Shown: positions 30,972 to 51,922, numbered from the stretch's first letter. The stretch: 64,000 nucleotides of DNA from an uncultured bacterium (GCA_964354155.1 CAYGYG010000001.1:139121-203120), one strand, 5' to 3'. Made by a program: numbers and translations. The notes: generated from the letters alone by a model not told the origin.

Positions 30972-31931
30972 ATGAAGAAAATCAGGAAAGTCCATATCGC
31001 CAGTCTACCGACGCCAATTGAGGTGATGCGCGACTTCCCGCATCCGGCCACGATTTTCGTGAAGCGGGATGACCTTACCGGGCTGCTGACCAGCGGCAAC
31101 AAGGTGCGCAAGCTCGAATACTCGCTGGCCGACGCCCTAAGCTACAAAGCCGACACGGTCATTACGTGCGGGGGCATCCAATCGAATCACTGCCGGGCGA
31201 CGGTCGCCTGTTGCCGCATACTGGGATTGAACCCGGTTATCGTTCTGCGGGGCGAACCGGTGCAACCCTATGACGGCAACCTCCTGCTCAATCAGCTGCT
31301 GGGGTGTGAAATCAGGTACATCACGCGGCGGGAGTACGATCATGTTGACGATTTGATGGAATCAATGGCCGCGGAGCTCATGCGGCAGGGCAAGCATCCT
31401 TACATAATTCCCGAAGGTGCTTCGAACGAAGTCGGTCTTCTCGGCTACATCGAGTGCATGGCTGAGATGAAAGAGTTCATCAAGCGGGAGCGGATCGAGG
31501 CGGTGTATGTCGCCGTAGGATCAGGCGGCACTTATGCGGGCCTGCTGTTGGGCAGAGTCATCCACAAGGTTGATGTTGATGTGTTCGGTGTCATCATCTG
31601 TGATACCGTCGAATTTTTCACCGAGAAGGTGTGCCGCATCGCTCAAGTCGCAGTTGACCGGTACGGCCTGGGCGCGGGAATTGATAAAGACGATGTCACG
31701 CTGGTTGACGGCTACATCGGCAAGGGTTACGGGATTCCTTATCGCGCCGAGATTGAGACGATCAAGAAGGTCGCGAAATTCGGCATCATTCTTGACGTGG
31801 TTTACACGGGCAAGGCTTTCCACGGTATGCTGAATCACGCCAAGGCCTACAAGAAGGTTCTATTCATTCATACCGGGGGCATATTCAGCCTGTTCCCGTA
31901 CCGGGAGGAATTCTATGGCCATCGGTCCTAA
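30972..31931 (+). CDS. PLP-dependent D-cysteine desulfhydrase / ACC deaminase family protein
   Basis: LPTPIEVMRDF...VKRDDLTGLLTSGNKVRKLEYSLADAL...TCGGIQSNHCRATVAAC...AVGSGGTYAGL are fold-type II PLP blocks typical of the DcyD/ACCD family. Confidence 0.75.
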   Translation: MKKIRKVHIASLPTPIEVMRDFPHPATIFVKRDDLTGLLTSGNKVRKLEYSLADALSYKADTVITCGGIQSNHCRATVACCRILGLNPVIVLRGEPVQPYDGNLLLNQLLGCEIRYITRREYDHVDDLMESMAAELMRQGKHPYIIPEGASNEVGLLGYIECMAEMKEFIKRERIEAVYVAVGSGGTYAGLLLGRVIHKVDVDVFGVIICDTVEFFTEKVCRIAQVAVDRYGLGAGIDKDDVTLVDGYIGKGYGIPYRAEIETIKKVAKFGIILDVVYTGKAFHGMLNHAKAYKKVLFIHTGGIFSLFPYREEFYGHRS

Positions 31932-31947
31932 CACAAGTCGTTTCGGC

Positions 31948-34560
31948 ATGCTGATGGCATCGATCGCGGCGCTCTCACTGGCCGCGCCGATCACGTTCGA
32001 CCCGGCGCAGACCCAGCCCTCGCGCTGGGTCGATCCCTACGGCCGGCAGCCGCAGTCTCATGCGCAGTGGGCAGCCGGGGTCGGGAGGGACGCCCTTGCG
32101 TACCTGGTCATTGGTGAGGCGGTCGGGACCGGTAAAGGGGCGAATCAGAATGTCGTCGATATCGTCGTCAATAGCCAGGTGTATCCTGACGTGGTATCGG
32201 AACTGGCCCAGTTCCGCACCGATCTTGTTGCCGCCGGATACGAGGTCCGCATTGATACGATACGCGGCATGTCGGCGCCGGCGCTGCGAACCCATCTGGC
32301 CGGCCTGGCCGGTTTGGTCGGCGCATTGTTTGTCGGCGAGTGTCCGGTCGAATGGTATGAAATCAATGGCTGGGGTGCGTGGGAAGAGTTTCCGATCGAT
32401 CTTTACTTTACGGACCTGAACGGGACCTGGGCCGATACCGACCTTGATGGTATTCTTGACTCGCACACCGGCAATGTCGCGCCCGAGATCTGGTTGGGCC
32501 GCCTCTATGCCCGCACCCTGACCTGGGATAGTGAGACGCGGCTCTACAAGAGGTACTTTCAGAAGAATCATCTGTATCGTACACACCAACTGACGTTACC
32601 GCAACGGGCCCTATCTTATGTTGACGATGACTGGTACGGTTGGGGTTCATGCTCGGTCAACCTGGTGTACCCAATAACCACCACGATTGAAGACATGGCG
32701 CTGACGACCGCCCAGGGTTATCGTCAGCAGCTTCAACAGGGTTACGAGTGGATTCACCTCTGCTCGCATTCTTCGCCCTGGGGTCACACCTTCAAGTACC
32801 CCGACGTCACAATTCAGTATAAAGGAACGGTCTTCAACTACGAACTCTTCGTGCTTGAGCCCAAGGCTCATTTCTACAATCTCTTTGCCTGTTCCGGAAC
32901 CAGATTCGTCGAAGAGAATTATTCAGCAGGCTGGTACGTATTCCACGATTCGTGCGGTCTCCTTGCCTTAGGCAGTGCAAAAACCGGGGGTATGCTGACC
33001 TTTCAGGATTTCTACACCCCCTTGAGTCAGGGACTGTCAATCGGCAATGCCTTCAAGGCTTGGTTTGTCAGAAACGGCGAGTCGAGCCGTGCCTGGTTCT
33101 ACGGACTGAATCTCTTGGGCGACCCAACTTTGAAGCCAAAGGAACAGGGCGGCGACTATGTTGCTCCACCGCCCCAGCAGTTCCACGGGGCTTTCGCCGA
33201 AGTCGTGGCGCCTGATTCTGAGAGCGACGGGATGCCGGCCATAGCAAGTGAGCCGTCCGGCCGCATCTGGGCGGTGTGGGAAACCGGCCGGTCGATTACG
33301 AACGGCCGCTGTGACATCTTCTCAGCCTACCGGACAACGGCTTGGTCAAGCGGTATGCCGGTTGGTTCCTTCATCTATTGGGACTACAATCCAACGGTCG
33401 GGCTGGACAGTCTTGACCGGCCGCTCGCGGTCTGGGCCGGCTGGGAGAATATTGGCGGCAACTACCAATATGACCTGTTCTGGAGTTACTACACCGGGTC
33501 AGCGTGGTCGAACCGGGCGCTGGTCCATCCGCTCGACCCGACATCGGATATGAAGCCATCACTGGCACGTGACCGGAACAAGCGCCCCTGGATTGCCTGG
33601 CAGACCAAACGCGACGTCAATTCCAATATCTATGTCACATACTACTCGGGGTCGGGCTGGAGCACACCGCGCGCCGTGAGCAACAATCCGGCCGAAGAGG
33701 TCGGGCCAAAGATCATCTGCGACAATACGGGTCGGCTCTGGGTGTCTTACAGCCGGCGTAGCGCAGACCGATCCCAGATATGGGGAAGCTATTACGACGG
33801 CGTGAACTGGATTGAGACCGGTCCGGTTTCGCAGAATCAGGAGCGGGCATACAATCCATCGGCTGCCGTCACCGGCACCGGAAAGGTCTGGGTGACCTGG
33901 CAGTCTTATGATGGCGGCAATGGTGAGATCTTCGGCAGCTACTACACCGGCACCGGCTGGTCAGCCCCGATCAACATCTCCAACCATGTGCTCAACGATA
34001 TGAGTCCGAGTATGGCGGCGGATGGTAATGGCCATGCCTGGGTTGTCTGGCACACTAACCGCGACGGCAATTGGAACATCTACTATGCTACCTGTCAAGA
34101 CCAGAGCTGGACTGCGCCTCAGGTGCTCGATGCTAATCCGGGGGTCGACATGAACCCTGCGATCGCTTCGGCACCGTCGAACAAAATGTGGGTTATCTGG
34201 CAGAACTATTCGGCAAACAACTGGGAAATCTATGCTCTGCAAAAGGATGCGGTAGAAATAGAAGAGAAAGAAGCAAGAGATAAGATGCTGGAAGCAAGAT
34301 TCACGATTTGGCCGAATCCTGCAAGGAGCGACGTTAGATGTCAGATTTCCGGTGTCAGTATGAAGAATACAAAAATCAAAGTCTATAATATCGCCGGAAA
34401 GATGGTTAAAGAAATGCCATTATCAGTTGGGGGTGGCAGTGCAGGAGCCCACTCATATCAATTCGTTCTGAATCTCTCAGATTTGGCTGCAGGAACCTAT
34501 TTTATTGGGTTGGAGAGCGGTGCGGGAAATGAAGTCCAAAAACTATCCATAGTCAAGTAA
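31948..34560 (+). CDS. second C25/gingipain-like peptidase-domain protein with W-rich repeat region and T9SS C-terminal domain
   Basis: Signal peptide MLMASIAALSLAAP. HLCSHSSPWGH and NLFACSGTRF look like a His/Cys dyad. At least 8 repeats of type Y(Y)xGxGWSxP. The T9SS tail is ...AAGTYFIGLESGAGNEVQKLSIVK. The ORF track starts it at 31915, overlapping the upstream gene. Confidence 0.6.
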   Translation: MLMASIAALSLAAPITFDPAQTQPSRWVDPYGRQPQSHAQWAAGVGRDALAYLVIGEAVGTGKGANQNVVDIVVNSQVYPDVVSELAQFRTDLVAAGYEVRIDTIRGMSAPALRTHLAGLAGLVGALFVGECPVEWYEINGWGAWEEFPIDLYFTDLNGTWADTDLDGILDSHTGNVAPEIWLGRLYARTLTWDSETRLYKRYFQKNHLYRTHQLTLPQRALSYVDDDWYGWGSCSVNLVYPITTTIEDMALTTAQGYRQQLQQGYEWIHLCSHSSPWGHTFKYPDVTIQYKGTVFNYELFVLEPKAHFYNLFACSGTRFVEENYSAGWYVFHDSCGLLALGSAKTGGMLTFQDFYTPLSQGLSIGNAFKAWFVRNGESSRAWFYGLNLLGDPTLKPKEQGGDYVAPPPQQFHGAFAEVVAPDSESDGMPAIASEPSGRIWAVWETGRSITNGRCDIFSAYRTTAWSSGMPVGSFIYWDYNPTVGLDSLDRPLAVWAGWENIGGNYQYDLFWSYYTGSAWSNRALVHPLDPTSDMKPSLARDRNKRPWIAWQTKRDVNSNIYVTYYSGSGWSTPRAVSNNPAEEVGPKIICDNTGRLWVSYSRRSADRSQIWGSYYDGVNWIETGPVSQNQERAYNPSAAVTGTGKVWVTWQSYDGGNGEIFGSYYTGTGWSAPINISNHVLNDMSPSMAADGNGHAWVVWHTNRDGNWNIYYATCQDQSWTAPQVLDANPGVDMNPAIASAPSNKMWVIWQNYSANNWEIYALQKDAVEIEEKEARDKMLEARFTIWPNPARSDVRCQISGVSMKNTKIKVYNIAGKMVKEMPLSVGGGSAGAHSYQFVLNLSDLAAGTYFIGLESGAGNEVQKLSIVK

Positions 34561-35158
34561 GTCACAGAGATTTCTAACTGGTCATGAATCGTTAATCATG
34601 TCGATGCAATAATTGAGATTACCGGGCTGCAAAGCTTTAGATAGTGAGTTTTTCCGATCGGCTATCAAAGATGCGATTTCTTCACACCTCCGCATATCAA
34701 GACCATCATTTAGACAATTAACTAAATGACAAAATGAGGAATATCCGACAAATAGCCGCAACGCAGAAGCCGGTTGTGCGACATTTTGCCGAGGTTTGTG
34801 ATAGAGACTTGAGAGCAGGTGGAGATCACGAGTTACAGGGGCTCGGCATGCTCTATCCTCATTTTTTCTCTGTTACGCCACAGCTAAAATGTCCCCATAA
34901 CTGCATAGCGATATGTCCCCTTCTTATGTTACTTGAATACATTTATTAGCGTAACCCACCGTAATTATTGTTAAGAGCCTACCCCCTTCAGTCATTGCGA
35001 GCGAACGCAGTGAGCGTGGCAATCCCCTTTTTTTCTTGAACAAATGAGATTGCTTCGTCCCTATCGGGACTCGCAATGACATATCGTGAGGGGACATCCT
35101 CCCTGTGGAATTAAAGGGGACATTTTCTCTGTGCGCCGACACTATCGTCATTTTTCTC

Positions 35159-35187
35159 TTGACTTTTTTTAAGAATATAGATATAAT
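35159..35187 (+). promoter_or_regulatory. sigma70-like promoter (TTGACT-17-TATAAT) for paralog 1
   Basis: ttgact at 35159-35164 and tataat at 35182-35187. The RBS gaggaggtaagATG at 35235 follows. Confidence 0.5.
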
Positions 35188-35234
35188 GCTGAACATCGGG
35201 TAAAATTTTCATTTTTTATCTTAGAGGAGGTAAG

Positions 35235-36974
35235 ATGAAAATGATATTTGTTCTTGCGATTTTGTATTTCACTCGTGTCTATGCTGTTGATTCGAGGGTT
35301 ACACCGATGGACAAAGCTTATGGACCGCCTGATCTGCACGCACGACGAAATAGTAGTTATGTTGCTGCACGTTCAAGAACGCCGATTATTATTGATGGAT
35401 GTAATGATAGGAGCTCTACATTGGGCGCAGCTGGGAAGAATATCTGTGCGGATACAACCGGAAGAAACATTGCGGTCCAGTATGGTGGTACTACACTGGA
35501 TACCACCAACTTCCAATCGAATAAATTTGCCTACTCGACCAACCAAGGAGCGACCTGGACAAGATTTGGACCTATCTCGGTAAGTCGGCCCTATTTCCGA
35601 AGACTATACGGCGGTTGCGATGCGCGTCCTGACTACTGGACTGATAACGAGATTATTTACACATGCTGGCATGAGGGTTATCGACGCGCTGGTGGCACAA
35701 ACGTGGATTCAAGCCCTGCAGCCTGTTGTCGCGACGATGGTACTTTCCCAACCGGCATGTGGAATAGGGCTCGTATGCCCCATACCGGCGACCCAGAACA
35801 TAATATCTGGATGACTTGCATTGCAGTAGCGCCTGATAACCGATCGATCATATATGAAACTGGTGGTGATTACGATTTCGGAGCGGGTGGGCTAAAAGAC
35901 CTGTTTTTGTGGGAATCGACCAACGCTGGTTGGAATTGGTCACAGCCACGACTGGTTATTCCCGGCTCAGCGACGATCGGTAGACACGATGGGATGCACA
36001 TCCGGTCAGGAACCGGTGGCTATTTATTTGCCTATTTCCAAAGAGATACTGTGGTCGGTGGTGAAACCCTGTGTTGGCCATACTACATTGAATCCACTGA
36101 TTTTGGAAATACCTGGATTCCGACCGCGGGCCGAGCCCTGATCACGACCATCCCTTATCCACAATACTCTCTCTCGTGGTACAACTATGACTGCGAAGTC
36201 GTAAACAACATACCCTATGTTGTCCTGACCCCAGGCGTGCCTGGTAATCACCGTAACCGGGTTGAGTTCTGGAAGGCGAGCGGCACTCCGGGTAACCGGA
36301 CCTGGACCATGATCCTGTTGGGCGGCACCAATCCGCCGGGAACAGATACGATTATGCGCGATGTTTCAATCACAAGCGGAAAGGCCTTTTTAAGGTTTGC
36401 GGATGTTATCATTGTCACATCTTTGGCCAGTAATGCTGTGGGAGTTGATCCGAGACTGTGGGTTTCGTCGAACCTGGGAACTGACTGGTCATATCGGGGC
36501 AATCCGGTGAATAACTCGTTGATTGAAGCATCCCTCGAAGTAGCACACACTCCGGGAAGAGGAACAAACCCCGATACTGACATTCGGCTCCATATGATCT
36601 GTAATGATGCAGGCGATTATCCTGTTTGCGGCTATGTTTATTATGAAGGATGTAATGTTCCTATTCTCGGGATCGAAGAAGAATTGAATAAAAACCTCAA
36701 CGCCTTCAATCTGCGGGTTGAACCGAATCCTTTCAGCCAGCGTACAAGCATAAACTACTACCTGCCCAAACCTGACCAGGTGAAGGTAAGAGTTTACAAT
36801 TCCCTTGGTGTTCAAATTGCTACGCTGTGCGATGGAGATCAGTTGAGTGGCACAAGAATGCTTGTCTGGCAAGGCACTGATGACAAGGGCAAGTCGCTAC
36901 CAGGAGGAGCGTATTTTGTGCAATTCAGAAGCTCGAGTGAAGAAAGGTGTGAGAAAGTAGTTCTCTTAAGGTAA
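35235..36974 (+). CDS. BNR/sialidase-like beta-propeller protein with T9SS C-terminal domain, paralog 1 of a tandem family
   Basis: Signal peptide. Family blocks VTPMDKAYGP, AGKNICADTTGRNIAVQYG, YSTNQGATWT (BNR), WHEGY, MPHTGDPEHNIWMTCIAV, YFQRDTVVG, WPYYIESTDFGNTWIP, WYNYDCEVVNNIPYVV. The T9SS tail ends KVVLLR. This copy is AT-richer than its neighbours. Confidence 0.75.
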   Translation: MKMIFVLAILYFTRVYAVDSRVTPMDKAYGPPDLHARRNSSYVAARSRTPIIIDGCNDRSSTLGAAGKNICADTTGRNIAVQYGGTTLDTTNFQSNKFAYSTNQGATWTRFGPISVSRPYFRRLYGGCDARPDYWTDNEIIYTCWHEGYRRAGGTNVDSSPAACCRDDGTFPTGMWNRARMPHTGDPEHNIWMTCIAVAPDNRSIIYETGGDYDFGAGGLKDLFLWESTNAGWNWSQPRLVIPGSATIGRHDGMHIRSGTGGYLFAYFQRDTVVGGETLCWPYYIESTDFGNTWIPTAGRALITTIPYPQYSLSWYNYDCEVVNNIPYVVLTPGVPGNHRNRVEFWKASGTPGNRTWTMILLGGTNPPGTDTIMRDVSITSGKAFLRFADVIIVTSLASNAVGVDPRLWVSSNLGTDWSYRGNPVNNSLIEASLEVAHTPGRGTNPDTDIRLHMICNDAGDYPVCGYVYYEGCNVPILGIEEELNKNLNAFNLRVEPNPFSQRTSINYYLPKPDQVKVRVYNSLGVQIATLCDGDQLSGTRMLVWQGTDDKGKSLPGGAYFVQFRSSSEERCEKVVLLR

Positions 36975-36983
36975 GGAGGGTAA

Positions 36984-37230
36984 ATGAAAACATTCATAGT
37001 CTTGATGTGCACATTATGCTCAACAGGTTGGCGATTGATACGCGAGTCACTCCGCGGGACCCAGGGTACGGGCCGCAGTATTATCGATCGAGTGGACCGC
37101 CGAGTCCGACCGCAGTGAGGATCGATGGAATACCAGACATACCATACGCACCAACCTATACCAATCGGGGTCATACCAATCCCAATGACCCCATGACCCC
37201 AAGTGCACCCGTAACAAGGATTTCTTAGGG
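36984..37230 (+). pseudogene. decayed 5' fragment of a paralog of the same BNR/T9SS family
   Basis: aaggagggtaaATG leads into MKTFIVLMCTLCS (signal-peptide-like), then a frameshift. In another frame the sequence reads AIDTRVTPRDPGYGPQYY...AVRIDG, which matches the family N-terminal block, followed by unrelated sequence and a stop. Confidence 0.55.
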
Positions 37231-37341
37231 CGAAAACCATCGGTTCCATATCGTCCGTTATTATTAAGGTTATGTGATTCGACGTTAATTCCGCAACGTT
37301 TCCGCAACGTTTCTTCAGTACAATATACTCAAGGAGCAGAG

Positions 37342-38997
37342 ATGAAAAAGTTATGGTTCACACTCATCATTCTTTGCACGTTTGGGTCGGCAATCGAAAC
37401 CACCGTCACGCCTCGTGACCCGCAGTATGGTCCATCAAGCCCGGCCAAGGGCCGACCACCCGGCCGGCTTGGCGTCAGGATTGATGCCGGTCCGGACTTA
37501 AGGTGCATTACCGGTGCTGCCGGCAAGAACATCTGCGCCGATACGACCGGTCTCAACGTTGCGGTCATCTACGGCTTCACCTCGGGTAATCCGGACAATA
37601 TCATGCAGACAAAGATTGGCTACTCGACGAACCGGGGCGTGACCTGGCGGCTATTGGGGCCGTTTTCAATCCACTGGCACCAGTATCGCCGGTGCTACTC
37701 CGGGATTGACGCCCGGGCAGGGTACTGGCCGAACAGCGAGAACGTCTACGGCACCTGGCACGAAGCGTATTTCCGGGGCGGTGCCTATATTGACACAAGT
37801 CCAGTGGCCGCAGCGTTCTGGCTATTCCCCAGCGGATCCATGGAAGTCAGGCACATGCCGCAGTCTATGGAAGGCAACTTCTGGCTCCCGTGCATTGCGG
37901 TCCGGCCCGACAACCCGGATTTCGTCTATGTCACGGCGGGTAACTACGACTTCGGTATTGGCGGTGTGGAGAGCATTGTTGGTTGGTTGTCCACCGACGG
38001 TGGCGATACATGGTCAGAGCCGATACATATCGTTGGCCGGGCATCCGACGCACCGCACATTCGTTTCGGCAGCGGTGGTTATCTGTTCGCCTATTTCCAG
38101 CGCGATACGGTAGTCGGCCCGGATACTTTGTTGTGGCCTTATTACATCGAGTCGACCGACAACGGATTGACCTGGATACCGCCCACTGGGAAGTGCCTCT
38201 TCACTTCGGCCCCTTACCGTCAGTGGTCGGGCTGGTGGTACAATTACGATTGTGAGGTTGTCAACAATGTTCCCTATGTGGTCATCTCGCCCGGGGTGCC
38301 GGGTCAACACCGGGACCGGACCGAATTCTGGAAAGCAAGCGGTCCGGTTGGTAATCGGACCTGGACAATGACGCTTTTGGGCGGGTCTAGTCCACCGGGC
38401 CAGGATTCGATCGTGCGCGAGGTTTCGATTGTGACCGGCAAGGACTATGCACGATTTGCCGAGAACATTGCGGTCATATCCAAGATCGGCACGGCAAGCG
38501 GCACCAGCCCGCGGTGCTGGGTGTCCAATGACTTGGGGTCAACCTGGCGCTACCTGGGCAACCTGAATATTCCGCTGGCGGCGGCGGACAATCCGCTCGA
38601 GTGTGCGCATGTGCCGGGCCGGGGCACCAATCCGGTGACCGATGTCTGGCTCCATTTTGTCTACTGGTCGGGGAATAGCGTCTACTATGATGGCAAAAAC
38701 ATCACGTGGGCAGAACTTGGCAGGGTAAGCGGCACCGACGGATCATCCGTCACGCGACCAATCACAATCTATCCCAATCCTGCCCGCAAGGGAATATGGT
38801 TGACGAAGCGCGATGACGACCGGCTGAAATATTTGGTCAGAATCTACGACGTCGCCGGGAAACTCGTTATGACGGCGGCAATAGATCAGGACCGAAGCGG
38901 GTGGGTCAATCTCGCCGCGCTGACTCCAGGGACGTACTTCGTCGAGGTGACGAGCCGGACATCATGGTTGGTTGAAAAGCTGATCATTGCAAGATGA
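37342..38997 (+). CDS. BNR/sialidase-like T9SS cargo protein, paralog 2
   Basis: RBS aaggagcagagATG. Blocks VTPRDPQYGP, AGKNICADTTGLNVAVIYG, YSTNRGVTWR, WHEAY, YFQRDTVVG, WPYYIESTDNGLTWIP, WYNYDCEVVNNVPYVVISPGVPGQHRDRTEFWKASGPVGNRTWTMTLLGG. The T9SS tail ends KLIIAR. Confidence 0.8.
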   Translation: MKKLWFTLIILCTFGSAIETTVTPRDPQYGPSSPAKGRPPGRLGVRIDAGPDLRCITGAAGKNICADTTGLNVAVIYGFTSGNPDNIMQTKIGYSTNRGVTWRLLGPFSIHWHQYRRCYSGIDARAGYWPNSENVYGTWHEAYFRGGAYIDTSPVAAAFWLFPSGSMEVRHMPQSMEGNFWLPCIAVRPDNPDFVYVTAGNYDFGIGGVESIVGWLSTDGGDTWSEPIHIVGRASDAPHIRFGSGGYLFAYFQRDTVVGPDTLLWPYYIESTDNGLTWIPPTGKCLFTSAPYRQWSGWWYNYDCEVVNNVPYVVISPGVPGQHRDRTEFWKASGPVGNRTWTMTLLGGSSPPGQDSIVREVSIVTGKDYARFAENIAVISKIGTASGTSPRCWVSNDLGSTWRYLGNLNIPLAAADNPLECAHVPGRGTNPVTDVWLHFVYWSGNSVYYDGKNITWAELGRVSGTDGSSVTRPITIYPNPARKGIWLTKRDDDRLKYLVRIYDVAGKLVMTAAIDQDRSGWVNLAALTPGTYFVEVTSRTSWLVEKLIIAR

Positions 38998-39055
38998 TGC
39001 AGCACAGGAGATGGGGAAACCGAAATCGAAGCGGCCTTGGGGATTGAGAAATCAC

Positions 39056-39083
39056 TTGACTTTTTCCGGCGGACTTGTATAAT
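39056..39083 (+). promoter_or_regulatory. sigma70-like promoter (TTGACT-16-TATAAT) for paralog 3
   Basis: ttgact at 39056-39061 and tataat at 39078-39083. The RBS aaggagg and a TTG start at 39141 follow. Confidence 0.6.
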
Positions 39084-39140
39084 CTTGGCATCCGAGGGTT
39101 GGCGCTCGGGTGTTGATCTGAATATGGGTAAGGAGGCGAA

Positions 39141-40841
39141 TTGAAGAGGGTCGTTTTCGTGTCGCTCATGTGGTCATACTTGCTATGTGCCGTGGATGCC
39201 AAGGTCCGGCCCCGGGACCTTATCTACGGGCCGACGGTTGACTGCCGCAGGACCAACCAGACAGCCGAGTCGCCAGGGGTCTACATCGATGACGTTCGGG
39301 ATGAACACAGCATTTTGGGCCCGAGCGGAAAGAACATTTGCGCCGACACGACGGGCCGAAACATTGCGGTCCAGTACGGCATGAACGCAGCCGGCCTGTT
39401 TACCTGAGCGCAGGGTACCCAGTGTAGAATAGGCTATTCTACCGATGGAGGGAATACCTGGCAGCGCCACGGGCCATTCGCCGTACGATATCCCAGCTAT
39501 CGAAGGCTATACGGCGGCATCGACGCGCGTGCGGGCGACTGGGTGGACAGCAACGAGTTGATCTACAGTTGCTGGCATGAGGCCTACGTTCGAAACAATG
39601 TCTATGTCGATTCCAGTCCGATCGGAGTTGCTTTTGACACAATGAGTTTTCCTGGCGGCGGCTTTCAAAGACGAACCATGCCCCACAGCGGCGATCCCGA
39701 ACATAATATGTGGCTCACCGGTATCGCGGTCAGTCCTGAAGACCCCGCACTGGCCTTGGTTTCCGGCGGCAACTATGTACTTCCCCACGGGCCCGGCGAT
39801 GTATATCTCTGGAAGACGACGGACCACGGACGCAACTGGTCGCACCCCCAACTTCTGATCAGCGGTTCGGCAGCCGTCAGGGACCATGATTGCCCGCATA
39901 TCCGGTTCGGCACCAGCGGATATGTTTTTGCGTACTTTCAGAGAGATACGGTGGTCGACTTCGATACGCTGAGCTGGCCTTACTATATCGAGTCTACCGA
40001 CAATGGCCGGACCTGGATACCCCATAATGGCCGGTGCATGCTTACGGCAGTACCCTACCCGCAATGGTCAAGCGGGTGGTACAACTATGACTGTGAGGTT
40101 GTGGACAATGTGCCCTATGTCGTTGTCTCGCCGGGTATTCCCGGCAATCACCGGGATCGCGTTGAATTCTGGAAAGCAAGCGGTCAAGTCGGCAACAGGA
40201 CCTGGACCATGTCGGTGCTGGCTGGTTTGACTCCGCCGGGGGCTGATTCTGCCAGGCTCGAAGTATCAATTGTTACCGGCAAGGACTTTGCACGATTCCA
40301 AGACGTTATTGCGGTTGTTGCCCAGACCATTACACCTGCCGAGGCTGATCCCCGAGGATGGGTGAGCAATGATGCCGGCGCAACATGGAGGTATCTTGGT
40401 TGTCTTCTGAACGAGCCGATGATCTACGAGGTCGCCTTAGAATGCGCCCATGTGCCCGGTCGGGGTTTTCAGCCCGAGACCGACATCCTGCTGCATATTG
40501 CCTACATCAGTCGTTCGAGACTCTACTATGCAGGATTCAATGTTGCCGGTGTCGGGGTTCCTGCGTCAAGCGGCGCGATTTGCCGCCGGCCCCATCTAGA
40601 GACAACGCCAAACCCATGCCGGGGCAGGCTGAGGATCCGCCTGGCCGGGGCAGAGAACAGCATGATGTTATGCGGTCGACTAAGACCACGTGTCTGCATC
40701 TATGACCCGTCAGGGCGGCTGGTTCGGGTTGCGACAATGTCCGGGCCGACATGCGTGATAGATATCGGACAGCCAGGGGTCTACTACATCGTAGTTGCAG
40801 TCGGCGAACGCGTGCTGACCAAGAAGGTTGTCATTCTTTAG
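39141..40841 (+). pseudogene. BNR/sialidase-like T9SS cargo, paralog 3, interrupted by a single in-frame TGA at 39405-39407
   Basis: The N-terminal 88 codons (MKRVVFVSLMWSYLLCAVDAKVRPRDLIYGP...AGKNICADTTGRNIAVQYG) are in the same frame as the downstream 432-codon ORF (...RIGYSTDGGNTWQRHGP...WHEAY...KKVVIL). The two parts are separated only by the TGA at 39405-39407. The rest of the gene and the T9SS tail are intact. Confidence 0.65.
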
Positions 40842-40957
40842 ACCGCGGTCGGCCTTGACCGACAACCAAGAAAACCAGAATGAGAAAAAGACGTTTTTTC
40901 ACAGCTCTTTCCTTGATTTAGGTATTCTAATTTCTTGTATATATAAATGGAGGTTTA

Positions 40958-42637
40958 ATGAAGAAAGCGATTGTACTTGCCGCTATTCTGTATTCGCTTA
41001 TTTATAGCCTCGATTGTAAGGTTACACCGAGGGAATACTGCGGACCACCGAATTCTAATTATTACCGCAATTATACCCCAAGCCCGAATGCGGTAAGAAT
41101 TGATTGGGGATTTGACATAAGAAGTATTATGGGGACAGCGGGGAAGAATATCTGTGCAGATACGACTCAAAAGAATGTGGCAGTACAATACGGCGAAGGT
41201 GGTTTAGGGGAATCTCAGAATTATACTCGCTGCAAGATTGCGTATAGTACAAATGGTGGGAATGGTTGGCAGCTGTTTGGCCCTTTTCATATCCAGTATC
41301 CATCGTATCGGAGACTTTATGGCGGTATTGATGCCCGGGCGACAAATTGGTACAATAATGAAATCATCTATGCTTCATGGCACGAGGCCTATTACCGAAG
41401 TGTTTACGTCGATTCAAGCCCACTGGCCGTCGCTTTTGATGAAGGTAATTTCCCTAATGGTTCCTTTCGATTAGCAGCGATGCCCCATTCAGGTGATCCG
41501 GGGCATAATATCTGGTTGACTTGCATTGCGGTGCGGCCCGATGATGCAAATATTGTCATTGCCTCAGGCGGTGATTACGATTTTGGCGCGGGTGGACCAA
41601 AGGATATCTTTACCTGGAAATCCACTGATGGCGGCTATACCTGGTCGCCGCCTCAGCTTTTAATACCAGGATCAACCACAATTGGTCTACATGATGCCCC
41701 TCACATCCGGTTTGGAACTGGCGGTTACGTATTTGCCTATTTTCAACAGGAGACCATTTATGGTTTCGACACATTAATGTGGCCATACTGCATCGAATCC
41801 ACCGACAATGGCCAGACCTGGGTACCGCCAAACGGCAGGTGCATGTTCACGGCAATCCCCTGTCCGCAATGGTCAAGCGGGTGGTACAACTACGACTGTG
41901 AGGTTGTCAACAATGTCCCCTATGTGGTCATCTCGCCCGGGGTGCCGGGTCAACACCGGGACCGGACCGAATTCTGGAAAGCAAGCGGTCCGGTTGGTGA
42001 TCGGACCTGGACAATGACGCTGTTGGGCGGGTCTAGTCCACCGGGCCAGGATTCACTCGTGCGCGATGTTTCGATTGTGACCGGCAAGGACTATGCACGA
42101 TTTGCCGAGAACATTGCGATCATATCCAAGGTCACAAATCAGAGTGGCACAAGTCCACGCTGCTGGGTGTCGAACGACCTTGGGGCGAGCTGGCGCTACC
42201 TGGGCAACCTGAATATTCCGCTCGCGGCGGCTGACAATCCGCTCGAGTGTGCTCATGTGCCGGGCCGGGGCACTAATCCGGTTACCGATGTCTGGCTACA
42301 TTTTGTCTACTGGTCGACGGGCAGTGTCTACTACGAAGGTGTCAATCTGACCGGAGTTGCTATCGAGGAGGTGATCGGTCAGGGCACGGCCTTGCCCGAG
42401 ATACTGGTCATGCCGAATCCAGCAAGGGGACAAGTGCGGCTTGCGGTCGATAGTGATGGACTGCGGCCGGGATTGATAAGAATCTTTGACGTCACCGGCA
42501 AGCTCGTCAAACAGGCAGTGCTGAGACTTTCAGGTTTCGGCACGATCGACATCTCATCTCTTTCTCCTGGAATGTATTTCGTTGAAATCGGGAAGGGGCA
42601 AAAGAAGCAGACTAAAAAGCTGGTTGTCGTGCGGTAA
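40958..42637 (+). CDS. BNR/sialidase-like T9SS cargo protein, paralog 4 (mosaic: AT-rich 5' half, 3' half near-identical to paralog 2)
   Basis: Signal peptide MKKAIVLAAILYSLIYSLDC. The same family blocks. T9SS tail ...GMYFVEIGKGQKKQTKKLVVVR. Confidence 0.8.
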   Translation: MKKAIVLAAILYSLIYSLDCKVTPREYCGPPNSNYYRNYTPSPNAVRIDWGFDIRSIMGTAGKNICADTTQKNVAVQYGEGGLGESQNYTRCKIAYSTNGGNGWQLFGPFHIQYPSYRRLYGGIDARATNWYNNEIIYASWHEAYYRSVYVDSSPLAVAFDEGNFPNGSFRLAAMPHSGDPGHNIWLTCIAVRPDDANIVIASGGDYDFGAGGPKDIFTWKSTDGGYTWSPPQLLIPGSTTIGLHDAPHIRFGTGGYVFAYFQQETIYGFDTLMWPYCIESTDNGQTWVPPNGRCMFTAIPCPQWSSGWYNYDCEVVNNVPYVVISPGVPGQHRDRTEFWKASGPVGDRTWTMTLLGGSSPPGQDSLVRDVSIVTGKDYARFAENIAIISKVTNQSGTSPRCWVSNDLGASWRYLGNLNIPLAAADNPLECAHVPGRGTNPVTDVWLHFVYWSTGSVYYEGVNLTGVAIEEVIGQGTALPEILVMPNPARGQVRLAVDSDGLRPGLIRIFDVTGKLVKQAVLRLSGFGTIDISSLSPGMYFVEIGKGQKKQTKKLVVVR

Positions 42638-42727
42638 CCGCCGGGCAAGCCGGAATCATCATGGTTCCGTTCTTCACTACCCAATCTCTTGACTTATTAC
42701 GGGTTTTGGTGTAAAATATTCGTCCGT

Positions 42728-44422
42728 ATGAAGGGCTATTTGATGTTTGTGCTCCATTCGCACCTACCCTACGTGTTGGGGCATGGCCGCTGGCCGCACG
42801 GTACCGACTGGCTGAACGAAGCGGCGGCCGAGACCTATATACCACTACTCAACAGCCTCTTTCAGCTGGTCAGCGAGGGGTACCATCCGCACTTAACCAT
42901 CGGCATCACGCCGATTCTGGCCGAACAATTGACCGCCGACTCCTTCAAGAAAGAGCTTTTGACTTACCTGCAGTTCAAGATCGAGGCCGCCAAGAACGAC
43001 CGTTTCGAGTTCGCCCGCTACGGCGAGGGTGAGTTCGCGGCCCTGGCTGAATACTGGGGTAGTTTCTATACCAAGGTGCGCGATGATTTTGTCAGCCGGT
43101 ACAAGGGAAACATCCTCAACGGTTTCAAGATCCTTCAACAGACCGGATTCATCGAGATAATAACCTGCGCCGCAACCCACGGCTACCTGCCGTTGCTTAG
43201 AGACGACCGGTCGGTAGAGCTTCAGATTGCCCAGGGCATTGAAACCTACAAGCGGCACTTCGACATCAAACCGGCCGGGATCTGGCTGCCGGAATGCGCC
43301 TACCGTCCGGCCTACAACTGGGCTGCGCCGGTCGGCAAATACCCTTCCGAGCCCAGGAAAGGCATCGATGAATTCCTGAGCGACCACGGCATTGACTATT
43401 TCATTACCGACAGTCACATGCTCAAGGGGGGTAAGGCGATCGGCATGTACCTTGCCCGTTTTGATGCGCTCAAGAAGCTCTGGGAGCAGTACGAGAAGGA
43501 ATTCATCGAGATCAAGGAGGGTTTTCGCAAGACTCCCTACGAAGCATACCTGGTTGCCTCCAATCCACAGAAAAAGCCGGTCTCGGTGTTCACCAGGGAT
43601 CCGAAGACCGGGCTCCAGGTCTGGAGCGGAGAATGGGGCTATCCGGGTGATGGCAGTTATCTCGATTTCCACAAGAAGCGTTTTCCCGGCGGGCTGCGCT
43701 ACTGGCGCGTGACCAATCCAAAGATCGACTTAGCGCTCAAGGAGATCTACCGTCCGGAGGTGATCGAGGATAAGGTGAAAGAACAAGCGCGCCACTTTGT
43801 TCAGCTGGCCTCGACCATTCTGGCGGACAATTTCAAGAAAAGGAAACGGCCCGGCATCCTGTGCGCGCCGTTTGACAGCGAGCTTTTTGGCCATTGGTGG
43901 TTTGAGGGCCCGCGCTGGTTATATCACGTCCTGAAGATCATTGATGACGAGAAGGTCATCGGTCTTGCTACGGGCAGCGAGTATCTGAAAAAAGAGCCGC
44001 CGACCAAAGTCATATCCTTGCCCGAGGGCTCGTGGGGCGAAGGCGGTTTCCACTACATCTGGCTCAACGAATGGACCAAGTGGACCTGGGCGCACATCTA
44101 CGAGGCGGAGGACGAGTTCTACTCAATACTCGCCCGCGCGCGGGGCAAGGGCAGTGAGGTTTTGGACAGCGTGCTCCGGCAGCTGGCCCGGGAACTGCTG
44201 CTCATGCAGAGCTCGGACTGGCAGTTCCTGATATCGACTTTCAGTGCCCGGGATTATGCAGAAATGCGCTTTGTGCGCCATCAGCGTAATTTCAAGCGCA
44301 TCGGGGGGATGGCCGACCGATTACTTGGAGGAAACCAGCCGGATACTGCGGATTGGGCATTTTTCAAGGATGTCGAAGCTCAGGACAACATCTTTCCCAA
44401 GCTGGTTCTACCGTCCGCCTAA
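42728..44422 (+). CDS. glycoside hydrolase family 57 protein (GH57 1,4-alpha-glucan branching enzyme-like, with C-terminal DUF1957-like helical domain)
   Basis: MKGYLMFVLHSHLPYVLGHGRWPHGTDWLNEAAAETYIPLL is the classic GH57 N-terminus. ...WLPECAY... is also present. The ORF track starts at 42689, but the ATG at 42728 is preferred. Confidence 0.75.
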   Translation: MKGYLMFVLHSHLPYVLGHGRWPHGTDWLNEAAAETYIPLLNSLFQLVSEGYHPHLTIGITPILAEQLTADSFKKELLTYLQFKIEAAKNDRFEFARYGEGEFAALAEYWGSFYTKVRDDFVSRYKGNILNGFKILQQTGFIEIITCAATHGYLPLLRDDRSVELQIAQGIETYKRHFDIKPAGIWLPECAYRPAYNWAAPVGKYPSEPRKGIDEFLSDHGIDYFITDSHMLKGGKAIGMYLARFDALKKLWEQYEKEFIEIKEGFRKTPYEAYLVASNPQKKPVSVFTRDPKTGLQVWSGEWGYPGDGSYLDFHKKRFPGGLRYWRVTNPKIDLALKEIYRPEVIEDKVKEQARHFVQLASTILADNFKKRKRPGILCAPFDSELFGHWWFEGPRWLYHVLKIIDDEKVIGLATGSEYLKKEPPTKVISLPEGSWGEGGFHYIWLNEWTKWTWAHIYEAEDEFYSILARARGKGSEVLDSVLRQLARELLLMQSSDWQFLISTFSARDYAEMRFVRHQRNFKRIGGMADRLLGGNQPDTADWAFFKDVEAQDNIFPKLVLPSA

Positions 44423-45220
44423 GCCCCGGCTGGCGCCCAGCAAAACAAGCATTCCCGCCAATAGACAGTAGATCGAGAAGAGATAGAACGACTTCCGGAT
44501 CAAGAGCTTCTTGAGGCCGAGCAGGGCGCCGACCCCGACTGCATAACTCACCGTGACTCCCACCACTATCGAAGCGAAATCGATCGAGGCCGTGATGTTC
44601 TTAAACTCCGTGAGGTTGGCGCCGAGCATCGCCGGAATGGCAAGCAGAAATGAGAACTCGAATACTTCAGCCGGGTCCATGCCCTGAAACAAGCCGGCGG
44701 AAATAGTCATCCCGGAGCGCGAGATACCCGGGAAGATGGCGAGGGCTTGAAAGACCCCTATGACCAGGGCGCGGCGCCAGCGGTTCGGCAGCTCCCGGTT
44801 GCGCGCAAACTTGGTTGCAAGAAGAACGATGCCGGTGATCAGAAGACCCGCGCCGATGACGGCCGGGCTGCCAAAGCTTTGCTCGACGGTGTTTTTGAGC
44901 AGGAAGCCGGCAAGGGCGGCAGGAATTGACCCCAGGATGAGAAGGAGGAACACCCTCAAATAACGGTCGGTGATTTTGACGCGGCGGTCGATGACGATCC
45001 GTCCTTTGAGAACCCCGCGGATCATTCGGCCGATCGGCCGGTAGAATACCGTTATGATCGATAGCAGTGTGCCCAAATGGAGATAGACGGCCAGGTCAAA
45101 GATTTCTTGAATGCCAAAGAACTGCCCCAAAAGGGCCAGATGGCCGGAACTCGAAATCGGCAGGAACTCGGTAATGCCCTGGACAACAGCGAGAATGATG
45201 ATGACAACTATACCAGGCAC
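44408..45220 (-). CDS. uppP: undecaprenyl-diphosphate phosphatase
   Basis: VQGITEFLPISSSGHLAL and PGISRSGMTISAGLFQG are UppP/BacA signature motifs. 8 TM helices. Confidence 0.85.
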   Translation of the reverse strand: MPGIVVIIILAVVQGITEFLPISSSGHLALLGQFFGIQEIFDLAVYLHLGTLLSIITVFYRPIGRMIRGVLKGRIVIDRRVKITDRYLRVFLLLILGSIPAALAGFLLKNTVEQSFGSPAVIGAGLLITGIVLLATKFARNRELPNRWRRALVIGVFQALAIFPGISRSGMTISAGLFQGMDPAEVFEFSFLLAIPAMLGANLTEFKNITASIDFASIVVGVTVSYAVGVGALLGLKKLLIRKSFYLFSIYCLLAGMLVLLGASRGLGGR

Positions 45221-46032
45221 AAAGCCCCCAATCCCGCCGCCATGCCGACCTTGAGCAACCAGCTTGCGCGGGTCAACGTTCTGGTATCAGGATGCGAAAG
45301 CATTTTTAGAAGGATGAAGACCACCACCGGCACGACCGTTACTCCGGCCGCAATCAAGTAGCGGGAGTGAAACCGGCCGAGCACGACCGGAACCGGCAGT
45401 AGCAGCAGGAGTATGACCAGCCCACCCGCTGCGCCGCGCAGCGCCCGATCTGGTCCGATCGTCAGCGCCAGCGAGCGCCGCTTCGAGGTCCGGTCGCCCG
45501 AGATGTCGAGGATATCTTTGACGATCTCCCGGGAATAGTGAAAGCAGAAGGCAAAGGCGGCGGGGAAAACGGCAAGACCGTTCCCGGTGATCAGACCTCC
45601 GGTCAAAAAGGCAAGGCTGCAGAGCAAGGCGACGACGGCATTGGAAAAGAAGGTATTCTTGATCTTATAAGGATAGAGGAAAAGCAGAGCAAGCGCCGAC
45701 GCGACTACGGCCCCCACGGTAAGGCTTACGCAGAACGCGATTATGAGCGAGCATATGCCAAGCAGGATTGCCCAGGTGAGCGCGAGCCTCCTGGTGACCC
45801 GGCCCGAGGGGAGGGGCCGGGATGGATGGCTGATCCGGTCGGCCTCGATGTCATAGCAGTCGTTGATCACATTGCCGAACGCAGCCGAGAACGCCGCGGC
45901 CAGCGCGGTCAAAACCAGGGACAAGGGAAAGACAACCGGGCGACCGACCCATCCCCCGACCAGCACTGAAACGAAGACGATGCCTACGTTGACGGGCCGG
46001 ATGATTTCGACCAAGGCCAAGCGCCGCCTCAA
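45208..46032 (-). CDS. UbiA-family polyprenyltransferase
   Basis: NVINDCYDIEADRISHPSRPLPSG is the first Asp-rich motif; DILDISGDR is the second. Multipass membrane protein. Confidence 0.75.
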   Translation of the reverse strand: MRRRLALVEIIRPVNVGIVFVSVLVGGWVGRPVVFPLSLVLTALAAAFSAAFGNVINDCYDIEADRISHPSRPLPSGRVTRRLALTWAILLGICSLIIAFCVSLTVGAVVASALALLFLYPYKIKNTFFSNAVVALLCSLAFLTGGLITGNGLAVFPAAFAFCFHYSREIVKDILDISGDRTSKRRSLALTIGPDRALRGAAGGLVILLLLLPVPVVLGRFHSRYLIAAGVTVVPVVVFILLKMLSHPDTRTLTRASWLLKVGMAAGLGALCLV

Positions 46033-47383
46033 ATGCCAATCTGGGTCGTGACCAAGATCACGTTCTTGGTTGCCCCGCGGCCCGGCACATTATCTTCGTT
46101 GTTGATCCAGCGGCGGTTGTATTCGACTTTGACTCGTGCCGAAAGAACCGGAAAATACTCGAGTGCGAAACCGAGTTCCTTGGTCGTCTCCACGACGCCC
46201 GAGGGGAAAACAGGATTGGGGTCGCCGCCTTCTTCTTCCCAGGACCGGTCAATGCGGCCCTCGCCTTTTCGTTTCAAGGACGGACTGAAGCCGGCATTCA
46301 GGCCGAGCCTGGTTCGGTAATCGATCATGATCTTGTACAGGTCCGCGTCCGGGCCGAGCCAGTGGCCGATGCACTTGCCGTCTTTGACGTATTCGTTTAT
46401 CGCCTTGCGCTGGGTGTAGACCCACTTATCAATGTGAACATATTCAGCACCGAGAAGCCAGCCTTCAGCCGGGAATGCCGTCAAGCCGGCCAGATATCCG
46501 AGCTTGTTAGGTGCCGGCGGTACGGTGTCGTAACGATAGTCGTCAATCAGGAGTTCGCCGTACACCTTGCAGGGACCCACGAAAAACTTGCCGTCCAGCG
46601 CCCACATGATGTTGTCGTCTCGGTTGACGATCCACTGGGAAACGTAGTAGGGCACGAGGGGGTTTATGTAGAATGGCTCGAGCGCGCCTCCGACAAGGAT
46701 AAGTTCCGAGAAGCTGACCGATGATCGACCCCGCCGCAACTCAATACGGTGCAGGGCCAGGTACCGTCTCGTTTCCGCCAGCGAAAAGGCCGCCGTGAAG
46801 CAGAACGAACCGCTCGTCGTCTTCATGAAGAAACCGTTGAAGGAGCCGGAGAAGTCGGAGAGAAGCAGTCCACCGGTCCGTCCCGGCCCCAGAAGCCATT
46901 CTTTGCGGCCGACTTCGAGTTTCGTGGTCCGGGCGGTGTAGATAAACTCAGCATCTTCGATATAAAACTGGAAATGATGCCAGGGGTAGGGGAAGGAGTC
47001 TTCGATGGTTTTCGCGTACTGGATGTTGTAGCGGGTTGAGTAATTGAGACGGTCGGCAATTCGGCCGGCAAAGAGCAGTCTCGTATTGACATAATGATTT
47101 TCCGGTTCGCTGCGGTACCGGGAATTGATGCCCAGCAGGTAGAACTTGCTGTAGTCTTCCCGCACGAAGGGACGCATCTTGCGGAGGATATGGTTTTCGT
47201 AGCACCTAAGCTCGAGCGCGGCAGCTTCCAGATTCGATAATTCCGTCGTCACGGCGGGAATTTCGTAGGGTCGGCTCTCGGCAAGATCGATCAGCCCACG
47301 ACCTTCAAGATATTCAAGGTCAAAATTGAGCGACGAGCCGATGGGCATCGTCTGCGCAACTACGAATAGAAATAAGAGCATCA
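46029..47383 (-). CDS. putative outer-membrane protein (beta-rich, signal peptide), unknown function
   Basis: Starts at MLLFLFVVAQTMPIGSS and overlaps the stop of the upstream Omp85 gene. Rich in aromatic residues with alternating hydrophobicity. Confidence 0.5.
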
Positions 47384-48898
47384 CAGCCTCCTTTCGATTC
47401 GGACGTGTACCTTTCCGTCCTGCCATGGTTGTCCGGCGGGGAAGGCGACGTCAAGCTGGCCACTGAGCACGCGGCTTCGGGCTTCGACGCCGATTCCATA
47501 GGCCAGATGGCGCTCCGTCGAAGCCACCCCGTCGTCCAGGATGGCAAGGCCGTCCAGGAACGGATAGAGGGGGAACTTCTTGTATTCGAGACTGAACCAG
47601 ATTGCTTTCTCGGCGAGAAATTCATCTTCCCAGTAACCCCTCAGGGTACGGGCGCCGCCGAGGCGGAAAAGGTTCTGTTCCTGAATAGGTTCTTCCCAGA
47701 GCCAGGCCAGATGGTTAGCCAGGACGAAATCGCCGAGCATGTGGCGGCCGTCGATCCGGGCCGTCACCCGACGATCGTTGCGGTCGTAGAAACCGACTTC
47801 CACCCGCAGCGTATCCCGGATGCGATCCTGATCGATGATGGTGCCCAGGCTCACGAGTTGAAGTCGCTCGCCGCGTGAGTCTTCGATGCCCCAGGCCGCG
47901 GCGAGATGGAAATCGGTGAATATCTCTCGCAGAACTTGGGCTAGCACACGAATCTTGCGGCGATCGTCATAAGTCTCCTGGTCAAGGGAAAGCCGGATCC
48001 GGGCCGGGAAGATCAACCAGGGCTCACCGTAGGCAATGCCGAAGTCACGACCTTGATGGTCGTAATTTAGGAAAAAAGTGCGGGCGGTGCCGAGCAGATT
48101 GAAGAAGTTTAGATTCAAATCGAAATTGAACTTGGCCGGTTCGGGGCGATAGTCGGCCCGACCCTCGATGTAGTCCTGCTTCTGTTCGTCGACAACCAGT
48201 CTTAGATAGTATTGGTTGTCCCGGGCCACGACCGATTCTTCGATGCGGCTGAAAAGCCCGGTCTTGAAAAGCCGGGCTTTCTGTCGTCGAATCTGCGAGG
48301 ACTTGAACAGAGAATCACCGCTGAGCGCGAACATCCGGCGGATCACAAAATCGCGCGTTGCCCGGTTGCCGGCAACGTCGATACCGCCAAGATGAACGAC
48401 CGGTCCTTCGTTGATGACAAACGCCATGATCAACGTGTCGGTGCCCGCCGACGAATCACGTACCGATATCCGGACCAGGGGCAGGCCGGCATCGCCGTAG
48501 ACATCGAACAGCCGCTCGATGTTGCTCTCCACCCGTCGGCGGTCAAAGAACAGGGGAGCCGCGAACGGCAGTTTCCTGAGCATCCATGAGGTGGCAAAGG
48601 TGCGGTTACCTTCAAGGATGAATTCCTTGATGACGTGGCGGGAGCCGGGCCGTACTTGGTAGAGGATATGTCCATTTTTGATTTCGTGCTCAACTGCTGC
48701 GTCCAGATACCCGGCCTCATGGTGACGGCGGACAATCGTCGAGATATCGGAGGCAACGTGGACGGCCGTGGTCGTTTTCTTGTCCAGGGGATGGATTACG
48801 GCGCTGTTCCTGATTTTGACGCGGTAGATACTGTCTCTTGCTTCCGACCCAGGATCGGCCGTGGAAAGCATCAATGCAAAAACAAGTAGGGACGCCAT
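47381..48898 (-). CDS. Omp85-family outer-membrane protein (BamA/TamA-like, POTRA plus beta-barrel)
   Basis: Signal peptide. POTRA-like N-terminal region. Barrel region with ...NLFRLGGARTLRGYWEDEF... (the Omp85 GG..RGY motif). About 505 aa. Confidence 0.7.
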   Translation of the reverse strand: MASLLVFALMLSTADPGSEARDSIYRVKIRNSAVIHPLDKKTTTAVHVASDISTIVRRHHEAGYLDAAVEHEIKNGHILYQVRPGSRHVIKEFILEGNRTFATSWMLRKLPFAAPLFFDRRRVESNIERLFDVYGDAGLPLVRISVRDSSAGTDTLIMAFVINEGPVVHLGGIDVAGNRATRDFVIRRMFALSGDSLFKSSQIRRQKARLFKTGLFSRIEESVVARDNQYYLRLVVDEQKQDYIEGRADYRPEPAKFNFDLNLNFFNLLGTARTFFLNYDHQGRDFGIAYGEPWLIFPARIRLSLDQETYDDRRKIRVLAQVLREIFTDFHLAAAWGIEDSRGERLQLVSLGTIIDQDRIRDTLRVEVGFYDRNDRRVTARIDGRHMLGDFVLANHLAWLWEEPIQEQNLFRLGGARTLRGYWEDEFLAEKAIWFSLEYKKFPLYPFLDGLAILDDGVASTERHLAYGIGVEARSRVLSGQLDVAFPAGQPWQDGKVHVRIERRL

Positions 48899-51921: not shown

Positions 51922-51922
51922 A

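Follow-up and report, generated by a model that had tools for sequence, protein, structure and literature searches.

How does a tandem gene array renew itself, and how does one of its members persist with a stop codon inside its reading frame? Both questions are raised by a 64,000-nt stretch of DNA from an uncultured bacterium (GCA_964354155.1 CAYGYG010000001.1:139121-203120; hereafter the window), in which four full-length paralogs and the relic of a fifth lie head to tail between positions 35235 and 42637. The locus is a tandem array of old paralogs that belong to a small family restricted to WOR-3. On balance, our observations are best explained by a recombining array whose third copy has its in-frame UGA recoded as selenocysteine (Sec).

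Gene conversion within the array

The copies are numbered 1 to 4 in the 5' to 3' direction, and all lie on the plus strand. Copy 1 (35235-36974) encodes 579 residues, comprising a signal peptide, a seven-bladed Asp-box propeller and a tail of the FlgD_ig/type IX secretion system (T9SS) type, with the core of the C-terminal sorting domain (CTD) starting at about 36723. Copy 2 (37342-38997; 551 residues) ends in a T9SS type-A tail that scores above the cut-off, with its CTD core from about 38773. Copy 3 (39141-40841) spans 566 codons from a TTG start and is a full-length family member with a single in-frame TGA. Copy 4 (40958-42637; 559 residues) is a mosaic of an AT-rich 5' part reaching to about 41800, a patch similar to copy 3, a patch similar to copy 2, and a T9SS type-A tail from about 42413. 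Open reading frame (ORF) calling and alignment give pairwise amino acid identities of 48-61%. A previous reading of this DNA from sequence alone had listed the four paralogs and a set of shared motif blocks, and alignment recovers both.

Divergence between the copies is far from uniform in sliding windows. Copies 2 and 4 have a conversion tract in common (38253-38670 and 41899-42316) that is 91.9% identical, with sub-blocks at 96-99%, whereas identity in the 5' half and the tail is 40-60%; synonymous divergence (dS) is 0.23 within the tract and saturated outside. A shorter tract is common to copy 3 (39998-40100) and copy 4 (41803-41905), and the two patches together define the recipient region of copy 4 (41803-42316). 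A GENECONV-style permutation test is significant for both pairs (p<0.0005 each) and remains so at third codon positions only (copies 2 and 4, p<0.0005; copies 3 and 4, p=0.002). Trees of the 5' and 3' parts are incongruent: copies 2 and 4 are distant in the former and sisters in the latter.

The sister strain L002 has patches with other limits. Its copies 2 and 4 (c2b/c4b) are 96% identical over alignment columns 1047-1418, and its copies 3 and 4 (c3b/c4b) are 97.1% identical over columns 896-1043, with a dS of 0.03. The differing limits indicate that conversion is ongoing, and at least three conversion events must have taken place after the split of the window strain and L002. We therefore hold with high confidence that the array and its gene conversion are real. 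The mosaic conversion and the near-identical 3' blocks of copies 2 and 4, both proposed from sequence alone, are confirmed by the permutation test, the tree incongruence and the strain-specific tract limits.

Base composition points to the direction of transfer. The GC content is 0.488 in copy 1 and 0.461 in the 5' part of copy 4 (0.42 at third codon positions), against 0.577 in copy 2, 0.572 in copy 3 and 0.564 in the 3' part of copy 4, values that bear out the AT-richness noted before for copy 1 and the 5' half of copy 4. Copy 4 changes composition near 41800, just where the patches begin, which identifies copy 4 as the recipient and the GC-rich type of copies 2 and 3 as the donor. Patches move between the deeply diverged copies by non-reciprocal homologous recombination, and the exchanges map to blades 4-7, where conservation is highest, starting at the WPYYIESTDNG block and ending shortly before the tail. 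The main recipient is copy 4, which has taken up about 100 bp of copy 3 type and about 420 bp of copy 2 type. The AT-rich stretch itself begins upstream of the array, in the sorting tail of an 881-residue T9SS-type cargo gene (31915-34560) whose last 400 nt have a GC content of 0.44, and continues through the spacer into copy 1 (34161-35400).

In L002 the same array adjoins a GH57-BacA-UbiA-Wzi gene cluster, as the synteny comparison established; L005 is an independent assembly of the same strain. Between the two strains the propeller body of copy 1 is only 57% identical at the amino acid level, while its tail (from 36687) is 97% identical in nucleotides. Copy 4 has a dS of 0.06 in its 5' part, and of 0.89 in its tail, where the nonsynonymous divergence (dN) is 0.46. 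For the array genes overall dS is 0.19-0.33, compared with 0.54-0.61 for flanking housekeeping genes; the region 36687-42444 lies two- to threefold under the flanking GH57, BacA, UbiA and Wzi-like genes (42681-46500). The lower values suggest a later exchange between strains for the array than for the genome around it, and the mosaic pattern between strains implies that the locus recombines within genomes and also moves between strains. Whole modules, namely the propeller body of copy 1 and the tail of copy 4, have been replaced between strains, and one extra copy decays.

This extra copy lies between copies 1 and 2 (36984-37230, plus strand). It retains a Shine-Dalgarno (SD) sequence, a start codon (ATG, 36984) and a signal peptide, followed by family motifs (TRVTPRDPGYGP...VRIDG) out of frame. 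In the window a 1-nt deletion near 37033 shifts the frame, while L002 carries an intact ORF of 81 amino acids, which indicates that the decay is still in progress. The decayed fragment and the turnover described in the sequence-only reading are thus both real, the latter being visible in the relic at differing stages of decay and in the replaced modules. A scan of the window found no additional family member beyond the array.

Each copy had also been credited with its own promoter and ribosome-binding site. The latter part stands, since a GGAG-type site precedes every copy. Sigma-70-like promoter matches are present for copy 1 (35159-35187, plus strand; TTGACT-17-TATAAT, 11/12, a match to the consensus only) and for copy 3 (39056-39083, plus strand; TTGACT-16-TATAAT, 11/12); upstream of copies 2 and 4 none exceeds the scan threshold. 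The leader of copy 3 also contains a hairpin, CCGAG...CUCGG (39092-39109), between the promoter match and the SD sequence. Its stem is kept in three lineages, the sole change being in the loop.

The in-frame UGA of copy 3

Copy 3 had been listed as a full-length paralog. This overlooked a TGA at 39405-39407 (plus strand, codon 89), located in the loop between strands B and C of blade 1, which splits the gene into ORFs of 88 and 432 amino acids in a frame that is otherwise open across 566 codons. We compared three lineages of this copy: the window together with L011, an independent assembly that is 100% identical at copy 3; L002 and L005; and L010, which shares 95.7% identity with L002 and 87.7% with the window. 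The TGA occupies the identical codon in all five sequences. Copy 3 of the window differs from that of L002 by 143 substitutions, none of which creates a stop, and indels are absent. Ahead of the TGA the dN/dS ratio is 0.29 and after it 0.25, in line with the between-strain values of the intact paralogs, 0.24 (copy 2) and 0.31 (copy 4). Synonymous changes are in excess (binomial p=3e-13), and under a neutral simulation the probability of finding no new stop is 0.008. In the 45 codons from the TGA to the next possible start, six of seven differences fall at third positions. The -35 and -10 hexamers, the SD sequence and the TTG start are invariant in the three lineages, and the spacer between the hexamers varies. 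The conserved TGA, the purifying selection on both sides of it and the invariant promoter, SD and start elements argue that copy 3 is very probably translated through its UGA.

Four clear genes of the window, namely copy 2 and the Wzi-like, POTRA and HNH genes, end in TGA as a normal stop, and a reassignment of this codon was rejected on these grounds. Upkeep of the copy 3 frame by repeated conversion from intact copies was discarded because identity is only about 50% outside the 100-bp patch. The idea that a tract with the TGA had recently swept from one strain to another was dismissed as well, since divergence around the TGA, at about 6-8%, equals the gene average. One further sequence, P0040, was considered as a family member truncated at the UGA loop and rejected, since it is cut by the end of its own contig. 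A search of genome contigs with copy 3 gave no match, and a metagenome search returned only L005.

Downstream of the UGA lies a hairpin resembling a Sec insertion sequence (SECIS), GUAGAAUA-GGC-UAUUCUAC (39424-39442, plus strand), with a stem of 8 bp and a triloop. The stem starts 16 nt, and the loop 24 nt, downstream of the UGA. The bacterial SECIS model calls for a loop of 3-9 nt, a stem of 4-16 bp, a G in the first two loop positions, a distance of 16-37 nt from the UGA and a minimum free energy (MFE) of at most -7.5 kcal/mol (PMC13188914); the loop, stem and spacing constraints are matched here (GGC, 8 bp, 24 nt). All three lineages keep the hairpin unchanged, whereas copies 1, 2 and 4, which encode almost the same peptide at the homologous site, lack it. 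The genes for the selenocysteine synthase SelA (51923-53323, minus strand; 494 bits) and for the Sec-specific elongation factor SelB, including its SECIS-binding winged-helix domains (50002-52011, minus strand), are 9 kb from copy 3. SelB would bind the hairpin and bring Sec-tRNA to the ribosome, recoding the UGA, and the residue would sit in a loop of blade 1, on the side of the propeller away from the Asp-boxes. Judged from these sequence features, the residue inserted at the UGA is probably Sec.

Three further in-frame TGAs occur in the family, one in L003 and two in L024, and each is followed by a triloop hairpin of 7-9 bp at 19-28 nt. The L003 gene (5692-7530) stems from another organism; its one in-frame TGA, at 7186, marks the exact boundary of propeller and sorting tail, and the hairpin GGUGCCA-GGC-UGGCAUC comes after it, with the loop 19 nt downstream. 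If this UGA is recoded, stop versus readthrough would set the presence of the secretion tail. L024 is a distant WOR-3 chromosome labelled complete (CP070834.1), where two diverged paralogs (7127-7891, plus strand; 10356-10913, minus strand) have the TGA at the same column, in a loop after the E-x-A-H motif of blade 7; one of them reads C-P-D-U. Both carry the hairpin ACCCAUGGUCUAUGGGUA with an identical 18-nt core, and its loop, read as GGUCU or GUC, is 24-28 nt downstream. A stem of at least 6 bp with a GGC triloop at 16-37 nt follows just 0.34% of 5642 TGA sites. A comparable hairpin follows all four family TGAs with frames open on both sides, against 8 of 120 (6.7%) such non-family sites.

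From these sequences we lean slightly towards a wider picture, in which WOR-3-specific exported propellers would have gained a UGA-encoded Sec and a SECIS hairpin several times independently, in variable loops or linkers without Cys homologs. They would be extracellular selenoproteins in which Sec is not a replacement of Cys, and the Sec-bearing copy 3 would also donate sequence to its neighbours in the array.

Several observations weigh against Sec and against this picture. The copy 3 hairpin alone has an energy of -5.4 kcal/mol, and once 56-63 nt of context are included the fold reaches -13.6 to -18.5 kcal/mol; in stem length the hairpin is equalled at about 3% of the window's TGA sites, and the fold z-scores of the hairpin contexts (-0.5 to -1.4) are not significant, so that thermodynamics alone lends the element no support. 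Rfam yielded no SECIS match in 39300-39560 at permissive thresholds and, at gathering thresholds over the whole window, no SECIS and no tRNA-Sec, only two ordinary tRNAs. Neither tRNA-Sec (ARAGORN, Rfam) nor selD was found within the 64 kb, and scans of the window and all loci turned up no known selenoprotein gene as a positive control for the SECIS. Nearly every known selenoprotein has Cys homologs (PMC13188914); here every UGA column of the family is devoid of Cys in the homologs. At that of copy 3, copy 4 has Ser and the others have D, N or P, and the L024 columns likewise lack Cys. The family UGAs lie in variable, indel-rich loops, at three positions without a common site. L003 and L024 are single sequences, and the L024 genes are broken by runs of N in a poorly assembled locus. 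Copy 3 itself is known from only two well-separated lineages, the third being close to the second. As to function, the T9SS machinery in the window consists of a weak PorU-like gene (26017-29499, minus strand) and an SprA/Sov-like gene (17181-21095, plus strand), both below curated cut-offs.

Fold, sorting tail and range of the family

The AF2 model of copy 4 (pLDDT 73, pTM 0.69) predicts an N-terminal helix, read as the signal peptide, then seven four-stranded blades (residues 65-110, 123-174, 185-236, 249-295, 311-357, 365-416 and 429-465) closed by an N-terminal strand (46-50), and a beta-sandwich tail (482-557). According to this model the fold is one seven-bladed Asp-box propeller that comes closest to CylK, GH145 and PL42. 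The Asp-box motif, S-x-[DN]-x-G-x-x-W, occurs three to four times per copy, a trait that numerous propellers other than sialidases also have. Two parts of the sequence-only reading have to be revised here. The conserved motifs assigned to a separate N-terminal module belong to the propeller itself, as its closing strand and first blade, and the BNR/sialidase-like reading does not extend to a six-bladed sialidase, which disagrees with the model and with the BNR_2 scores of 13.5-20.3 bits, which fall under the gathering score of 31.4 bits throughout. No F/Y-R-I-P motif is present, and VRID is not retained in distant members.

In Pfam and NCBIfam searches, the sorting domain at the C-terminus and weak Asp-box signals are all that registers. 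The type-A T9SS tail attributed to all copies is secure for copies 2 and 4, which exceed the TIGR04183/PF18962 cut-off of 23 bits (43.2 and 47.6 bits), while copies 1 and 3 fall slightly below it (20.0 and 21.2 bits); copy 1 does pass the cut-off of PF13860 (FlgD_ig). The signal peptide, seen in the sequence, and the sorting domain indicate export or surface location of the products. T9SS clients abound in the window: two more cargo proteins with T9SS-type tails, one with an FG-GAP propeller and one with a BNR_2 propeller, are encoded at 59834-62017 (minus strand) and 62174-63775 (plus strand).

Sequence searches of 5.8 billion clusters yield 15 close members of the family, and a set of 1.84 billion gives 44 representative clusters at E<=1e-10; all 13 loci recovered from species-representative genomes are from WOR-3/Stahlbacteria. 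On this evidence the family is rare and WOR-3-restricted, yet not private to the source genome, as had been claimed. In a different WOR-3 metagenome-assembled genome, a further tandem pair of family members (L017, 4940-8421; 55-57% identical to P0017) shows that tandem duplication in the family is not limited to the lineage of the window. In a more distant WOR-3 genome, GCA_965648915.1 (L001/L013, L016), a family member lies directly upstream of the GH57 gene. The contig stops about 200-270 nt upstream of this member and a second contig stops inside a family gene, which is consistent with an array having broken the assembly.

Charged residues that are invariant in the family (K63, R118, R119, D125, E143, R251, E280, D313, E315 and E430) and the neighbours in fold space hint at a glycan-active or glycan-binding surface protein. 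Such a function, either surface binding or cleavage, is a tentative proposal drawn from the model, and we regard it as somewhat doubtful. With still greater reserve, recombination may serve to diversify such glycan-binding or glycan-cleaving proteins.

Beyond the array, the GH57 branching-enzyme ORF is listed from a TTG at 42689, where a promoter-like TTGACT-17-TAAAAT is found (42689-42717); the ATG of the L002 ortholog corresponds to 42743, which makes 42743 the likelier start. The window contains a second pair of duplicated genes, tandem paralogs of the MuiA family (TIGR02231; 1264-2916 and 3220-4782). Between the POTRA gene and selB lie genes for an HNH endonuclease and tRNA-Ala (48871-49839), and the HNH gene is likewise placed in L001.

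Alternative explanations and known systems

The persistence of copy 3 admits two explanations other than Sec insertion. It could be a nonsense pseudogene, kept solely as a silent donor cassette for copy 4 in the manner of pilS or vls cassettes; the in-frame TGA itself, the copy 3 patches found in copy 4 of both strains and the lack of a Cys homolog to back Sec would all fit. A silent donor, however, would not account for purifying selection that spans the gene from signal peptide to tail, well beyond the donated 100-150 bp, nor for an unbroken frame after so many substitutions, nor for promoter hexamers, SD sequence and start codon left unchanged. Moreover, the hairpin stands at SECIS distance and recurs after the three other family TGAs. 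We consider this explanation quite unlikely. Translation could also pass or restart at the UGA without Sec, for instance by a near-cognate tRNA-Trp stimulated by the hairpin, giving little full-length protein or two products. Selection on either side of the UGA is compatible with this, the UGA positions of the family do not look catalytic and have no Cys counterparts, and the L003 site between propeller and tail would suit a switch between two isoforms. Yet the 45 constrained codons after the UGA contain no start codon, making a restart there unlikely, and a leaky stop would be expected to drift to TGG, while TGA is retained in three lineages. To our knowledge, SelB/SECIS is the only established bacterial mechanism that pairs a UGA with a hairpin at such spacing, and selA and selB are close by. 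Readthrough or restart without Sec is accordingly rated as rather improbable, though less so than a silent donor, and Sec insertion is the reading that we retain.

The recombining propeller array has its own competitors. Near-identity of copies 2 and 4 could reflect constraint on the conserved blades at the protein level, given that the tracts start at the most conserved block, WPYYIESTDNG, or else an assembly artefact, given that related contigs break at family genes in a region that is hard for assemblers. Against this stand the significant permutation test on third codon positions and the low dS within the tracts (0.23; in L002, 0.03) beside saturation elsewhere; copies 1 and 3 carry the same protein motifs without the nucleotide identity, the 5' and 3' trees disagree, and three independent assemblies concur (L011 matches the window at 100%, and L002 agrees with L005). 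Constraint or artefact is therefore very improbable. Least probable of all is that the copies are ordinary tandem-duplicated GH33 sialidases. This would explain the Asp-boxes, the weak BNR and BNR_2 matches, a profile match to the Porphyromonas gingivalis sialidase (E 1e-6 over 75 residues) and the listing of sialidases by Foldseek at E 1e-9. It conflicts with the seven-bladed model, with TM-scores of 0.34-0.39 to sialidases as opposed to 0.67-0.69 (target-normalised) to the seven-bladed GH145, with BNR_2 scores of 13-20 bits where 31.4 are needed, and with the absence of a conserved RIP motif, VRID being lost in distant members.

If Sec is indeed inserted, an exported, non-redox-looking family from an uncultured phylum would be added to the selenoproteins, and Sec would prove to be gainable repeatedly at new positions. 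Searches for new selenoproteins depend almost wholly on Sec/Cys pairs (PMC13188914). Such searches would miss a family with UGAs in variable loops and no Cys counterpart, whose members would be annotated as split or truncated genes, as happened to copy 3. The residue could provide selenium-based surface chemistry or tie protein output to selenium supply. The array, for its part, offers a clean and statistically backed case of ongoing conversion and module swapping in a surface-protein locus beyond the well-studied pathogens, with two strains at hand.

Among known systems, GH145 (BT3686, BACINT_00347), PL42 (FoRham1) and the ulvan lyase family PL25 share the seven-bladed fold predicted for the array proteins. 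Sequence identity to them is 10-13%, without a sequence-profile link; they lack a T9SS tail and are not known as recombining arrays or as selenoproteins. GH33 sialidases have in common with the copies the Asp-box S-x-D-x-G-x-T-W (three to four per copy) and a weak local profile match over two blades. They are six-bladed, whereas the copies have seven blades in the model, sub-cut-off BNR_2 scores and no RIP/Arg-triad signature in their sequences. T9SS type-A cargo of Bacteroidota resembles the array proteins in its TIGR04183/PF18962 domain and N-terminal signal peptide; the host here is WOR-3 instead, and copies 1 and 3 stay under the TIGR04183 cut-off.

Bacterial selenoproteins such as Escherichia coli FdhF resemble copy 3 in having an in-frame UGA, a hairpin at 16-37 nt whose first loop positions carry G, and SelA and SelB encoded in the genome (PMC13188914, PMC8659212). 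Unlike them, the candidate has no Cys homolog at the UGA, and its site is in a variable loop of an exported, non-redox-looking protein; the loops of the family hairpins are GGC or GUC triloops, and there is no U17-type bulge. The closest parallels to the array as a recombining locus are Neisseria pilE/pilS, Borrelia vlsE, Treponema tprK and Anaplasma msp2, where short patches are likewise copied non-reciprocally between neighbouring paralogs into an expressed gene, with strain-specific mosaics as the outcome. In contrast to these systems, all array copies have a ribosome-binding site and a start codon, and copies 1 and 3 have strong promoter matches as well. The array holds no bank of promoterless cassettes, and its patches affect the conserved core instead of hypervariable stretches.

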